From IMG/VR virus record IMGVR_UViG_3300032086_003519, positions 23,213 to 87,212 of that record: 64,000 bases of DNA; one strand, given 5' to 3'. The translations under genes and the position numbers were made by a program. The notes beneath the pieces are model-generated. The model searched no databases. It was given only the letters and a program-made list of their open reading frames with translations, and was not told where the DNA came from. Source of the DNA: a virus. Shown piece by piece: positions 25,709-61,604 of this stretch. The stretch's first letter is position 1, and each line of letters begins with the position of its first letter.

Positions 25709-26049
25709 TACTCACCTTTCTCTATGTATTTCATTTTTTCAGCAGTAGACATCTTGTTGATTTTGTTTCTGCGTTGATTAACCTCTCGGTCTTTCTTAAC
25801 CTTGTCCATATTATCAGCCTGCATCTTATCTTGCAGTTCATAGCTTCCCATCTTCTGTGTATTCCTATCGGCTAGGTGTCTTACTGTTGTAGGCTCACCC
25901 TTTACAGACACATGAGGAGCATCTAGTATAACTCTTCTAAATTTATGTTTCTTGCATGACGGACATCTTACCAAAGGTTTCTCCGAGAATCTTTGGAACA
26001 CTTCTTTATAATGTCCACACTCACTACACTCATAATCGTAGGTTGGCAT
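25708..26049 (-). CDS. FmdB-family zinc-ribbon protein
   Basis: MPTYDYECSECGH...CPSC signature. Confidence 0.85.
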   Translation of the reverse strand: MPTYDYECSECGHYKEVFQRFSEKPLVRCPSCKKHKFRRVILDAPHVSVKGEPTTVRHLADRNTQKMGSYELQDKMQADNMDKVKKDREVNQRRNKINKMSTAEKMKYIEKGE

Positions 26050-36784: not shown

Positions 36785-39225
36785 CTCTCACATCCGGGAT
36801 CTAAAATAGAACATGCCTTAATTTCTTCTGCTTGTGGCTCTTCGGTTGACTTAAAACTAACAGTTGATTTCTCAACGCGAGTGGCGGCTTTGCCTCTCAA
36901 GTAATATGTAGTTTTTAATCCGTTTTCCCAAGCACAAAAATATAAGTCATTCAAAAACTTAAGACTGTCATGTTTGTTGTAAAGATTAAGCGATTGTCCC
37001 ATATCAATCCACTTCTGTCTTTCAGCCGCAGCCTTAATTAAAATTTCTGGTTCAATATCAAAAGCAGTAATAAACTCTCTCTGAATATCTTCATCCAGAT
37101 CAACCGCCATAACGTCTCCGTCAGCAGTTTTTAGAGCATCTACTAGCTCTTGACACCAAATACCCTTCTTCTTAGCCATTGCAACAAAATGTTCATTGAC
37201 CATAGTAAACTCTCCACTAAGTGTTGAGTACACATAAAGAACCGAGTAATCTGGCTCAATAGACTGCGAACAACCCTGAATATATGAGATGGTTGCGGTA
37301 GGAGCGATTGCCATGACATTACTATTACGCATACCATGTTTTCTCACTAATTCCCTAACCTCATCCCATTCTTCTACAAAGTTCTCGAAGTCCTCTTTCT
37401 TATACACATTATCTGACCTGTGAGTCTCTCTCTGATTCATTAAATCACAATAAGTATCTATAGGAAAATTACCTTTATCCCATTCGGAACCCTCAAAAGA
37501 GGGGTATGCGCCTTTTTCCTTAGCTAATAATGCTGACGTTTTGATCGCATGTAAAGAAATAAATTCTTGTATTTTCCCGCACAGTATGACTGCATCTTGA
37601 GAATTATACGGTATTCCTAGCTTGTGTAACACATCATGAGTACCCATAATACCAAGCCCTACAGGTCTGTGTTTCAGGTTTGACTTTTTGGCTTCTTTTG
37701 TAGGGTAGAAGTTTAGATTTACAACATTGTCTAAGCCTCTAACTGCCACCTCTACGGTTTTCTGTAGCTTTTTCCAATCAATAGTTCTAACTTTTAAGTG
37801 CGATGATAGATTGATACTGGCGAGATTACAGACTGCTGTTTCACCTACCTCGACAATTTCACCTTCTTCATAAACTGTAGGTTTGGTGTGCAGTAAAATC
37901 TCAGTACACAGATTAGAAGAATGGACTACACCCTCATGTTTATTAGAATATCTTATATTAGATGGGTCTTTAAAGGTGATCCAAGGATGTCCAGTTTCAT
38001 AAAGCGCAGTAAGAACTTTCTTCCAAAGGTCTTTAGCATTAATAGTTCTATAATTATTTATTTCTCCATTGTCTGCGGCTTTCTTATATTTTCTATAAAC
38101 CTTAGTAAACTCTTTGCCGTAGGTATCGTGTAACTCTGGACATTCTGCTGGATCAAACAAATACCAATCTTGGTTTTTTGTGACAGCTACCATAAAGTCA
38201 TCTGGAATCCATAAGGCAGTATTCATGTCGTGACAACGACGGCGATCATCTCCAGTATTTTTTCTAAGGTCTAAGAAGTCTTCAATGTCTAAATGCCAAG
38301 GTTCAATATAAGAACATCCAGCACCTTTTCTTTTTCCTCCTTGATTGACCGCCACTAATAAGTCATTGAATATTTTTAACCAAGGAACAAGGCCTGTAGA
38401 CTTTCCATTTGTGCCTTTTATGTAGCCGCCTGTAGCTCTTACGCTAGACCAATCAACACCAAGCCCTCCAGCATATTTCGACAATCTAGACTGTCCATGT
38501 AACGTACCAAAGATGCCATCAATTGAATCTCCCACTGTACTCAAATAGCAAGAAGAAAGCTGAGACCGTTTTGTCCCACTGTTAAACAGTGTAGGAGTAG
38601 ATGGAGAATATCTAAACTCTGACATCATATTATATATTTCGAGAGCCTTCTCTTCTTTATTATCCCCCTCTGCAAGACATAGACCCATAGCTACTCGCAT
38701 ATAAAATGCTTGAGGGGTTTCCATTCTCTGTTCATTTAGGTGGATAAAATAGCGATCATAGAGGGTTTGGATGCCCAAGTATTTGAATAGTTTGTCCCTT
38801 GATGGAACCATATTCTCAGCTAGGTAATCAAGATCATAAGAAAGGAGTCTATCACTGAGCCTCTCTTCTTTTACTAACCTTTTGATGTTTTTCACAAAAG
38901 CTTTTTTGTACTGCTCTTCAAAATTTTCACTACCTACGTCTTCGCCAAACACCTCTTTATAAAGATTGTTAAGTAGCATCCTCGCAGCTACATAAGCATA
39001 GTTTGGTTCTTTTTCTATCTTAGAGCGAGCAGATAATATCAGCGCCTTGTTTATTTCTGATGTTGGTATCTTATTGTAGAGTTGCAAACTAGCATCAAGA
39101 ACTACTTCGCTCACAGAAACATCTTCAAGTTCATTACAAGCCCTTTCAACGCACTCATTTATCTTGTCTAAACAAACATCTTCTAGTCTACCGTTGCGTT
39201 TTTTAATTTTTATATCTTGGCTCAT
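36775..39225 (-). CDS. nrdA: ribonucleotide reductase class Ia alpha subunit with ATP cone
   Basis: IKKRNG ATP cone, PSTPTLFNSG, QLSSC, SNLCTEI, CNLASINL, APTATIS, KTTYYLR, C-terminal CxxC. Confidence 0.96.
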   Translation of the reverse strand: MSQDIKIKKRNGRLEDVCLDKINECVERACNELEDVSVSEVVLDASLQLYNKIPTSEINKALILSARSKIEKEPNYAYVAARMLLNNLYKEVFGEDVGSENFEEQYKKAFVKNIKRLVKEERLSDRLLSYDLDYLAENMVPSRDKLFKYLGIQTLYDRYFIHLNEQRMETPQAFYMRVAMGLCLAEGDNKEEKALEIYNMMSEFRYSPSTPTLFNSGTKRSQLSSCYLSTVGDSIDGIFGTLHGQSRLSKYAGGLGVDWSSVRATGGYIKGTNGKSTGLVPWLKIFNDLLVAVNQGGKRKGAGCSYIEPWHLDIEDFLDLRKNTGDDRRRCHDMNTALWIPDDFMVAVTKNQDWYLFDPAECPELHDTYGKEFTKVYRKYKKAADNGEINNYRTINAKDLWKKVLTALYETGHPWITFKDPSNIRYSNKHEGVVHSSNLCTEILLHTKPTVYEEGEIVEVGETAVCNLASINLSSHLKVRTIDWKKLQKTVEVAVRGLDNVVNLNFYPTKEAKKSNLKHRPVGLGIMGTHDVLHKLGIPYNSQDAVILCGKIQEFISLHAIKTSALLAKEKGAYPSFEGSEWDKGNFPIDTYCDLMNQRETHRSDNVYKKEDFENFVEEWDEVRELVRKHGMRNSNVMAIAPTATISYIQGCSQSIEPDYSVLYVYSTLSGEFTMVNEHFVAMAKKKGIWCQELVDALKTADGDVMAVDLDEDIQREFITAFDIEPEILIKAAAERQKWIDMGQSLNLYNKHDSLKFLNDLYFCAWENGLKTTYYLRGKAATRVEKSTVSFKSTEEPQAEEIKACSILDPGCESCQ

Positions 39226-39261
39226 AAGTCTCACTGGAATCAAAGGTTAGTGTAAGTGTAT

Positions 39262-39394
39262 AAAAAAAACGACACTTATAACATACAGAGATAGGAACTT
39301 GTCTACTCTAAGTTTATCCCTGTGCCTTTCGGCTTGTCGGGGTAAGTGTCGTTTAGCCTGTTTTCCAAAACTGGCTTTTTATTCCCCAACGACT
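39262..39394 (-). ncRNA. structured nrdA 5' leader (candidate attenuator/riboswitch or stand-alone sRNA)
   Basis: 12-bp closing stem running into a U8 tract, GAAA-capped hairpin, G-U pairs favouring the minus strand, 5' segment complementary to the closing stem. Confidence 0.55.
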
Positions 39395-39399
39395 GTTAA

Positions 39400-39428
39400 A
39401 TTATAGTGTTCGTTGAGCGGATTTGCAA
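39400..39428 (-). promoter_or_regulatory. sigma-70-type promoter for the nrdAB leader
   Basis: TTGCAA-N17-TATAAT. Confidence 0.75.
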
Positions 39429-39442
39429 GATCTAATTAATGA

Positions 39443-39646
39443 CTAACCGCCAAAAAATGATCTTTTTTCGTCGTCACCATCTTCGTCTTCCGAGACTGGC
39501 TCTGGAGCCGGAGCTGGTGCTGGTACTGGGTCTTTTTTAACACCCAAAGCTTCCGCCATAGCGGTAAATACTTCAACAAGCTGTTCATGGTTCTGAGTGC
39601 CAAGAATAACCTTATCTAACATATCTTTGATTACAACTTTGTCCAT
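39443..39646 (-). CDS. hypothetical protein with (PA)n linker
   Basis: AGGAG RBS; PVPAPAPAPEP. Confidence 0.6.
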   Translation of the reverse strand: MDKVVIKDMLDKVILGTQNHEQLVEVFTAMAEALGVKKDPVPAPAPAPEPVSEDEDGDDEKRSFFGG

Positions 39647-39962: not shown

Positions 39963-39995
39963 AAAAAAAATAAGGGGAGGGAAACCCCTCCCCTT
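39963..39995 (-). terminator. intrinsic terminator
   Basis: AAGGGGAGGG-GTTT-CCCTCCCCTT then A and T8. Confidence 0.85.
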
Positions 39996-41398: not shown

Positions 41399-41868
41399 TA
41401 GTCATTGTCCTCAAATATCGCTAGTGCGCTGTTGACGGCTCTACGTGCAGTCTCTCTACTGTAACCGTTCTTCTCTCCAATCTCGACCATGGTCATTCTG
41501 TCGAGGTAGCGTTGCTTTAGAATCTTCTTCTGGTCTTCATTGAGGTCTGAGAGCAGGACTTCAATGTTTTCTTTTGGAGTGTGGCAGATGTCAAACGGTA
41601 TGCCATTCTTCTCTCTTCTTCTAATTCTAAGCTGGTTCATCATCGCATAGTTGAGTTGTTGATACAGAAAGGTTGTAAATTTAACACCTCTAGTTTCATC
41701 AAAAGAGTTCAGGCACTTCCACAATACTTCTAGCCTTAAAGATGAGATGTCATCTGGGTCAACACTTTTACAATATTTTGCGCAAACAGAATCCATAATT
41801 TTTTTGTAATCAATATTTTCTAAAGCTTCGTTTAGATCTCTAGTCTTCAATTTAAGATACTTCTTCAT
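41398..41868 (-). CDS. RNA polymerase sigma-70 family factor (second)
   Basis: LWKCLNSFDETRGVKFTTFLY; LNEDQKKILKQRY..MTMVEIGEKNGYSRETARR. Confidence 0.85.
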   Translation of the reverse strand: MKKYLKLKTRDLNEALENIDYKKIMDSVCAKYCKSVDPDDISSLRLEVLWKCLNSFDETRGVKFTTFLYQQLNYAMMNQLRIRRREKNGIPFDICHTPKENIEVLLSDLNEDQKKILKQRYLDRMTMVEIGEKNGYSRETARRAVNSALAIFEDND

Positions 41869-50601: not shown

Positions 50602-50605
50602 AAAG

Positions 50606-50946
50606 TGGAGGTGGCGGGATTTGAACCCGCGTGCCACATAATATTATTATTAACTTCTACATGTTTAGTATAATTATTATCGTCCATCATACTAGACTAT
50701 CCAAGTTATCGGAGTCAAACAAATTATTGTTATCATATATATTTAGTTCAAGTATATAAACTCTAGCAAAATTATCTGCGTCATCACTATTTGGTTTGCG
50801 GGGCTGTGATACCCGTGCCGCTAGGCGGCGAGTGCGAAATTCTCTTCTACACTTAAAAAAAATGAGAACGATTTTTTAAGTAGCCACTCGTTCAACTACT
50901 ACATGCAATCAATAACTTTATTACTGGTCGATCCCAATTCACCCCC
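50606..50946 (-). ncRNA. ssrA: tmRNA; tag reading frame 50850-50821 = (A)VEENFALAA*
   Basis: 5' GGGGGTGAATTGGGATCGAC; 3' GCGGGTTCAAATCCCGCCACCTCCA; G3-U70 alanine identity pair; tag ends LAA-stop. Confidence 0.93.
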
Positions 50947-61532: not shown

Positions 61533-61604
61533 TGACCTGTACGGGAATCAAACCCGTGTTGCCAGCGTGAAAAGCTGGAGTCCTAACCCCTAGACGAACA
61601 GGCC
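61533..61604 (-). tRNA. tRNA-Glu (UUC), CCA not encoded, T-loop TTTGATT
   Basis: GGCCTGT/ACAGGTC acceptor stem; CCAGC-TTTTCAC-GCTGG anticodon arm; ACGGG/CCCGT T-stem. Confidence 0.92.

Follow-up and report, generated by a model that had tools for sequence, protein, structure and literature searches.

The stretch immediately upstream of the ribonucleotide reductase (RNR) genes nrdA and nrdB of this uncultured marine phage encodes what is, judged by conservation and covariation, a real, conserved structured RNA of ~130 bases with its own promoter. The family to which this RNA belongs is absent from the families catalogued in Rfam 15 and from the literature that we found. Our leading reading, a tentative one that we hold at somewhat less than even confidence, is that the RNA is a cis-acting leader gating read-through of its own terminator (helix P3 and the U-tract after it) into the RNR genes. 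RNR is among the commonest auxiliary or replication genes of marine viruses, and its dNTP supply limits phage genome replication.

Location and fold of the candidate leader RNA

We analyzed a window of 64,000 nt from a phage that carries rIIA/rIIB, a sigma-like gene, and a tmRNA and has every ORF on one strand (minus). In the window, nrdA and nrdB encode the class I RNR large and small subunits (Pfam), and the two genes overlap. The stretch upstream of nrdA contains the following features.

39443 to 39225, minus strand: gap of 217 nt from the stop of a 67-aa ORF (39443) to the nrdA ATG (39225), read directly
39400-39428, minus strand: predicted promoter, with -35 TTGCAA (39428-39423), a 17-nt spacer, and -10 TATAAT (39405-39400)
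39384-39390, minus strand: P1 5' strand GUUGGGG, pairing with 39336-39342
39377-39383, minus strand: J1/2, an A-rich linker with family consensus UAAA(A)G, its columns conserved when the alignment is fitted to the model
39355-39376, minus strand: P2, hairpin AGCC-A-GUUUU/AAAAC-A-GGCU (RNAfold), its 3' strand adjoining P3 with zero linker
39343-39354, minus strand: P3 5' strand AAACGACACUUA, pairing with 39267-39278
39336-39342, minus strand: P1 3' strand CCCCGAC, directly after the P3 5' strand
39324-39333, minus strand: GCC-GAAA-GGC tetraloop hairpin, subgroup specific
39285-39323, minus strand: P4, a long variable arm (minimum free energy [MFE] fold)
39278-39267, minus strand: P3 3' strand UAAGUGUCGUUU, running into U8 (39269-39262), a terminator-like end
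39214-39236, minus strand: nrdA start region, an invariant block with CAGUGAGA (39236-39229) and the start codon (39225-39223)

An earlier note on this DNA had described the promoter TTGCAA-N17-TATAAT, the hairpin, the 12-bp stem, and the U8 on the minus strand; all are present, and the promoter, P2, and P3 are kept in dozens of relatives. A promoter scan gave 10 of 12 consensus matches at 39428-39400 (minus), from which the transcript would start a few bases before GUUGGGG. The motif CTTGCAAAT...TATAAT is kept throughout the window's subgroup and is unique within the window, and the promoter spacer contains a copy of the P3 5' strand motif, AACGAACAC (39414-39406). U8 lies 36 nt from the nrdA ATG, and no promoter-like site was found in these last 36 nt of the window's leader, so nrdA in the window must be read through P3/U8. 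We rejected AACGAyACUUAUAA as a phage-wide promoter motif: 18 matches (≤3 mismatches) were found where 16 are expected, and the sole exact match is the element itself.

RNAfold reproduced exactly the nested fold that had been proposed, at -37 kcal/mol (z = -2.74; 1 of 200 shuffles was equally good). The choice of strand also holds, given that the G-U pairs are compatible with the nrdA strand only and that the opposite strand folds slightly worse. The relatives, with their compensatory changes, point instead of the nested three-way junction to a different core. From 5' to 3', its elements are the P1 5' strand, P2, the P3 5' strand, the P1 3' strand, the variable domain, and the P3 3' strand, with the P1 3' strand beginning 0 to 5 nt after the P3 5' strand. 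Because of this order, P1 and P3 interleave with zero bases shared, which is an H-type pseudoknot topology and replaces the three-way junction core with a competing 5' antiterminator put forward earlier. The GACA/UGUU stem thought to close that junction fails to recur in relatives, and its GAC forms part of P1; the 6-bp GUCGUU/AACGAC alternative is specific to the window's lineage. Pairing of the 5' end with CCCCGAC, which the earlier note had offered as a mutually exclusive option, survives as the conserved, covarying helix P1, which shares no base with the long stem and so does not compete with it for sequence. P1 and P3 could thus coexist in one RNA, the ~130-base leader is probably knotted, and P2, P3, and P1 could form a coaxial stack. 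The MFE structure in a series of nested folds consists of P1, P2, and the inner hairpins until the P3 3' strand emerges.

Covariation was found in each helix of the core. P1 has changes on both sides at 8 of 8 pairs, and 88.5% of its cells are paired, in a model-fitted family alignment that leans toward the covariance model; the helices were recovered from individual loci as well. None of 500 shuffles matched this pairing, and slid partners reached at most 45%. The sequence of P1 varies widely with pairing kept (GUUGGGG/CCCCGAC, CUUGUUGGGU/ACUCAACAAG, AACCAGAG/CUCUGGUU, GUGCUAGG/CCUAGCAC, and others), and the base of P2 covaries as well, its fourth base pair being C-G, G-C, or U-A. For P3, a structure-blind MAFFT alignment shows 95% pairing and 4 pairs with changes on both sides; an anchor-free search recovered 10 bp of the helix in 41 of 45 distinct sequences and revealed A-U/G-C exchanges at three positions. 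A good part of the conserved sequence lies within P3 and not in the junctions. The GCC-GGC stem is invariant in all 29 subgroup copies (loop GAAA, or GGAA in one), so that covariation neither supports nor contradicts it. By eye, the base of the P4 arm (CAG.../...CUG) is kept, and its inner pairs vary by lineage and still pair (GGGAUA/UAUCUC, UAGC/GCUA, and AGGU/ACCU).

Family members and their link to ribonucleotide reductase genes

To collect relatives, we screened the upstream regions of 80 loci encoding NrdA relatives in IMG/VR with a P3 stem-pair pattern, which matched in 54; a core covariance model confirmed 50 copies, 48 of them distinct, on marine viral contigs. A group A-pattern scan of marine metagenomes, in which UUAUAAGUGUCGUU (the P3 3' strand plus 39279-39280) was fixed, added 42 subgroup loci with 29 distinct sequences. 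These copies fall into three sequence groups: group A is the window's own, group B carries the signature GCUAGAGCGACAC...GUGUCGCUCU, and group C carries UCGCUAAAGCGACAC...GUGUCGCUUU and has a larger inner domain. The covariance model finds a single copy in the window and a single copy in the 87-kb genome record.

Beyond these loci the RNA was not recovered. A DNA search of 50,697 phage records with the leader gave no match; cultured relatives are distant, the best NrdA match being 48% identical and the best rIIA match ~35%. The RNA is missing from relatives with NrdA ~59% identical, and the RNR proteins of the lineages that bear it are only ~73 to 77% identical or belong to another class. Apart from that in L100, matches to the 15-mer TCGCTAAAGCGRCAC in viral contigs outside nrd loci all fail the covariance model and were discarded as chance. 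A pattern scan of 185,579 species genomes, made with group B/C wording only and thus open to the escape of divergent cellular copies, returned 3 hits (11 to 14.5 bits; E, 0.1 to 0.9) that we attribute to chance. Rfam 15 gave no hit to the leader region at gathering thresholds and only subthreshold chance hits at E ≤ 10, and it gave no match in 13 family loci or in a group C copy. The earlier note, which recognized in the element neither a 2'-dG nor a cobalamin riboswitch, is borne out in this respect.

The next downstream gene on the same strand is an RNR gene in 34 of 34 representative loci, and all 29 distinct metagenome sequences of the subgroup run into nrdA. The downstream genes are either nrdA-nrdB or, in L100, L137, L141, L142, and L150, the class II gene nrdJ (~730 aa; Pfam RNR-II_ins_dom), and groups B and C are each found with both RNR classes. 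Upstream neighbors vary: the nrdJ loci have dCMP deaminase, the window's group has small unknown ORFs, and other loci have other genes. The family therefore combines two properties by which riboswitch classes are recognized, a conserved structured domain with covariation and a cis position before functionally coherent genes in many genomes. Such exclusivity, with the link to RNR maintained even where the enzyme class changes, is what one usually sees with cis-regulatory RNAs, and for this reason we favor the leader reading. As the RNA is dedicated to RNR, common to lineages with two RNR classes, not seen in cellular genomes as far as the scan could reach, and absent from Rfam, it marks a phage-specific control layer for DNA-precursor synthesis.

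Two small ORFs accompany the RNR genes of some relatives. In L100 (9578-9796), L030, L046, L050, and L057, the RNA is separated from the RNR gene by a 72-aa ORF whose tail is rich in K/R (KFEVxFIxxDKNGKPT...); the ORF matches no Pfam family, and its product may be an RNA-binding partner. A 115-nt nrdA-nrdB gap in L003, L004, L012, L016, L037, and others holds a conserved 38-aa ORF (MRFVEFKQS...) that is absent in the window. We had considered internal terminators in this gap of the relatives and set them aside, the gap being the 38-aa ORF.

Predicted terminators and possible modes of action

The 12-bp stem of P3, followed by U8, encloses 64 nt, and a consensus terminator scan does not call it because its "loop" is of this length. 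A U-run follows P3 in most family members. Downstream of P3, at a distance of 10 to 14 nt, most group C members as well as L010, L013, and L146 carry another hairpin terminator, whose sequence is not conserved; where this second terminator is present, P3's own U-run is shorter or missing, and several such copies (L017, L021, L029, L055, and L033) lack it altogether. L010 and L013 have two terminators within 60 nt of the nrdA ATG and no evident promoter. In group C, the second terminator is followed by a further 110 to 170 nt with an invariant block holding a -10-like TACAAT. A promoter dedicated to nrdA may therefore lie in this stretch, which could make the RNA a transcription unit of its own.

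An invariant block, the 21-nt GTACAATTGAAATAGTTACAA, lies ~50 nt before the nrdA ATG in L012, L016, L024, L037, L042, L043, L045, and L051; it is preceded by a GTTATCT...GATATAG dyad, and both come after the second terminator. Block and dyad together resemble a promoter/operator that serves nrdA separately.

Downstream of the leader, we found no further strong terminator on the minus strand as far as position 26000, and the next ones upstream are at 39995-39972 and 43494-43468. The first of these (39972-39995, minus), a strong G/C hairpin with U8, lies ahead of two ORFs (96 and 67 aa) situated between it and the leader and bounds a short upstream transcription unit. Four RNA runs from three studies yielded short, low-depth contigs at 39196-39346, 39213-39411, 39326-39491, 39353-39506, and 39417-39590. 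These contigs extend across the promoter as well as the U-run, and 38770-39195 is covered by none of them; because they are assembled Logan contigs in which ends, strand, and level are not readable and DNA carry-over is possible, we draw no conclusion from them.

The 3' element also has an inverted copy, a repeat of ~14 nt formed by the promoter spacer/-10 stretch (39401-39414) and the RNA 3' element (39267-39280), ~135 bp apart. In the window's subgroup, UUAUAAGUGUCGUU is complementary to both the P3 5' strand and the promoter stretch, and across subgroup lineages one of the two partners is always strong: pairing with the P3 5' strand versus the promoter copy is -16.5 versus -11.1 kcal/mol in the window and -7.6 versus about -16.4 to -17.8 kcal/mol in the L164/L167 lineage. 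One subgroup lineage combines a decayed P3 5' strand with an invariant 3' strand. Since transcripts from upstream would carry the promoter copy, the 3' element may also stop upstream transcription; a DNA-level role is possible too. An antisense promoter at the inverted copy was sought, and no -35 was found.

Under the leader reading, the stretch would be the 5' leader of the phage nrdA-nrdB transcript, initiated by a strong sigma-70-type promoter a few bases 5' of GUUGGGG. In the nascent RNA, P1 would form first from the 5' end and CCCCGAC, enclosing P2 and leaving AAACGACACUUA exposed. Next, the variable domain would fold into its GNRA hairpin and long arm, and last, UAAGUGUCGUUU would pair back to give P3, interleaved with P1 and with U8 immediately after. 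P3 and the U-run would then terminate transcription intrinsically, 36 nt short of the nrdA start codon, and the leader would set the fraction of polymerases that go on into the reductase genes. An effector, perhaps a metabolite, a protein, or the polymerase itself, would read the conserved knotted core, made up of P1, the A-rich J1/2, and P3 with its conserved sequence.

Several observations weigh against a leader. A switch acting on P3 cannot govern the second terminator found in many relatives, and group C nrdA may be transcribed from its own promoter at the TACAAT block. No conserved mutually exclusive (antiterminator) pairing was found among the relatives, sequence conservation lies largely inside P3 and not in the junctions, and the P3 5' strand has decayed in the lineage noted above. 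Start site, termination at the U-run, and conditional control by the leader are all predictions. A CAACA/UGUUG hairpin that would compete with P1 in group B was rejected, as it does not track the P1 sequence in L141 and L048, and no conserved leader peptide was found. For the family as a whole, second terminators and a probable separate nrdA promoter in many relatives argue against the simple one-terminator riboswitch suggested before. The broader proposal of a ligand- or protein-controlled switch or a ~130-nt noncoding RNA (ncRNA) is a fair description insofar as it means a novel RNR-linked leader/attenuator or ncRNA; no ligand is indicated. We consider rather unlikely a marine-phage-confined riboswitch class in which the H-type pseudoknot would bind a nucleotide-pool metabolite (e.g., a dNTP, dNDP, or deoxynucleoside), stabilize the P3 terminator, and shut off class I and class II RNR; if true, it would amount to RNA feedback control of dNTP synthesis, replacing NrdR.

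The second terminators and the probable nrdA promoter fit a stand-alone RNA or a put-like element at least as well as a leader, and we regard both as serious rivals. The locus could be a stand-alone sRNA gene (promoter, ~130-nt knotted RNA, and terminator) whose product acts in trans on an RNA or protein target and which is kept beside the RNR genes through a functional link or coregulation; nrdA in the window would then be expressed only by terminator leakage. We judge this unlikely, with an appreciable chance nonetheless. The RNA is a discrete unit with its own promoter and is always followed by a terminator, either P3/U-run or the dedicated second hairpin; the shortening or loss of the P3 U-run where that hairpin exists fits selection for a defined 3' end and not a switch, and the -10-like block between RNA and nrdA in group C points the same way. 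However, trans-acting RNAs rarely keep one neighbor through replacement of the gene class, and all copies examined precede RNR. The window and most of groups A and B leave only 20 to 45 nt, with no room for another RNR promoter, and no target complementarity was found.

Processive antitermination of the put or nut kind, in which the nascent knotted RNA, with or without a small phage or host protein, would modify its own polymerase so that only transcripts from this promoter pass the terminator(s) into the RNR operon, seems to us quite unlikely. It would account for an RNA placed right after a promoter and before one or two intrinsic terminators ahead of the RNR genes, as in L010 and L013 with their two closely spaced terminators and no evident promoter. 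P3/U8 would also confront polymerases coming in from upstream genes, in line with an insulating role, and the 72-aa K/R-rich protein is encoded by some relatives between the RNA and the RNR gene. Such RNAs are rare, though, no similarity to a catalogued antiterminator RNA appears in Rfam, and there would be little to overcome, the nrdA-nrdB gap of relatives being without a terminator and the window having no strong one to 26000. Improbable, finally, is an unregulated element that serves as terminator or insulator for upstream genes and as 5' stabilizer of the RNR message and sets a fixed ratio of short RNA to mRNA. Burial of the 5' end in P1 and the lack of a conserved alternative fold are consistent with this, as is the strong partner that the subgroup 3' element always keeps, whether the P3 5' strand or the promoter-spacer copy, the latter only in transcripts from upstream. 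A plain terminator, however, needs no covarying pseudoknot, A-rich junction, and sequence-conserved helix across lineages with diverged or other-class RNRs.

Comparison with known systems and neighboring features

The 2'-dG-I and 2'-dG-II riboswitches are purine-riboswitch variants at RNR genes that act as transcription terminator switches. They are likewise structured leaders tied to RNR genes, but they are three-way junctions with kissing loops, whereas P1 and P3 here interleave with an inserted hairpin and give no Rfam hit at E ≤ 10. The features that define the purine/2'-dG class, a three-way junction with a P2-P3 loop contact and a junction core, were not recovered: no model matched, and the GACA/UGUU stem is unconserved. 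Adenosylcobalamin riboswitches (e.g., at Streptomyces nrdABS) also place RNR genes under RNA control, but no cobalamin model matched here, and because the RNA is found ahead of RNRs of class I (B12 independent) as well as class II (B12 dependent), B12 is unlikely to be the common signal.

SAM-II, SAM-V, preQ1-II, and the T4 gene 32 leader pseudoknot likewise place an H-type pseudoknot topology at the 5' end of a regulated message, the linker between the two helices being short or lacking. These knots are small and exert mainly translational control, and none has sequence or model similarity to the leader. Unlike them, helix 2 here is 10 to 12 bp and doubles as a terminator stem, loop 1 contains a hairpin, and loop 3 contains a variable domain of 60 to 130 nt.

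The HK022 put RNAs and the Bacillus EAR element act as cis antiterminators on their own polymerase. Both are, like the leader, promoter-proximal structured RNAs followed by intrinsic terminators in a phage or operon; the likeness is one of layout, with no similarity detected, and here the terminator stem belongs to the conserved RNA. A boxA-like CGCUCUUU in group B was dismissed, as it covaries as a helix strand (AGAGCG/CGCUCU versus AAAGCG/CGCUUU) and is not kept as boxA. NrdR with its boxes is also a regulator dedicated to RNR genes of all classes, but it is a protein acting on DNA. By eye, the only half-box-like strings are ACACTATA (promoter) and UAUAAGUGU (3' end), ~130 bp apart and not tandem 16-bp palindromes, and we rejected them as NrdR boxes.

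Were the RNA to bind a metabolite, it would define a new class of riboswitch and provide a naturally occurring (deoxy)nucleotide sensor; were it to act on polymerase, it would be a rare further example of RNA-only antitermination. At ~130 nt it is compact, and about 80 natural variants make it suited to biochemistry.

Other features of the window were also recorded. On the opposite strand at 39355-39385 (+), the complement of P2 together with UUUUUAUU resembles an intrinsic terminator and draws weak subthreshold Rfam hits (RprA and anti-hemB); as all ORFs are on the minus strand, this appearance is probably incidental. At 41401-41868 (minus), 2 kb upstream of the leader, a 156-aa ORF matches phage RNA polymerase sigma-factor families (PHROG 351; E = 3e-16), and this sigma-like protein may define a phage-specific promoter class. 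Rfam gathering thresholds were also passed by a tmRNA at 50603-50946 (minus; 100.5 bits) and a tRNA at 61533-61604 (minus).
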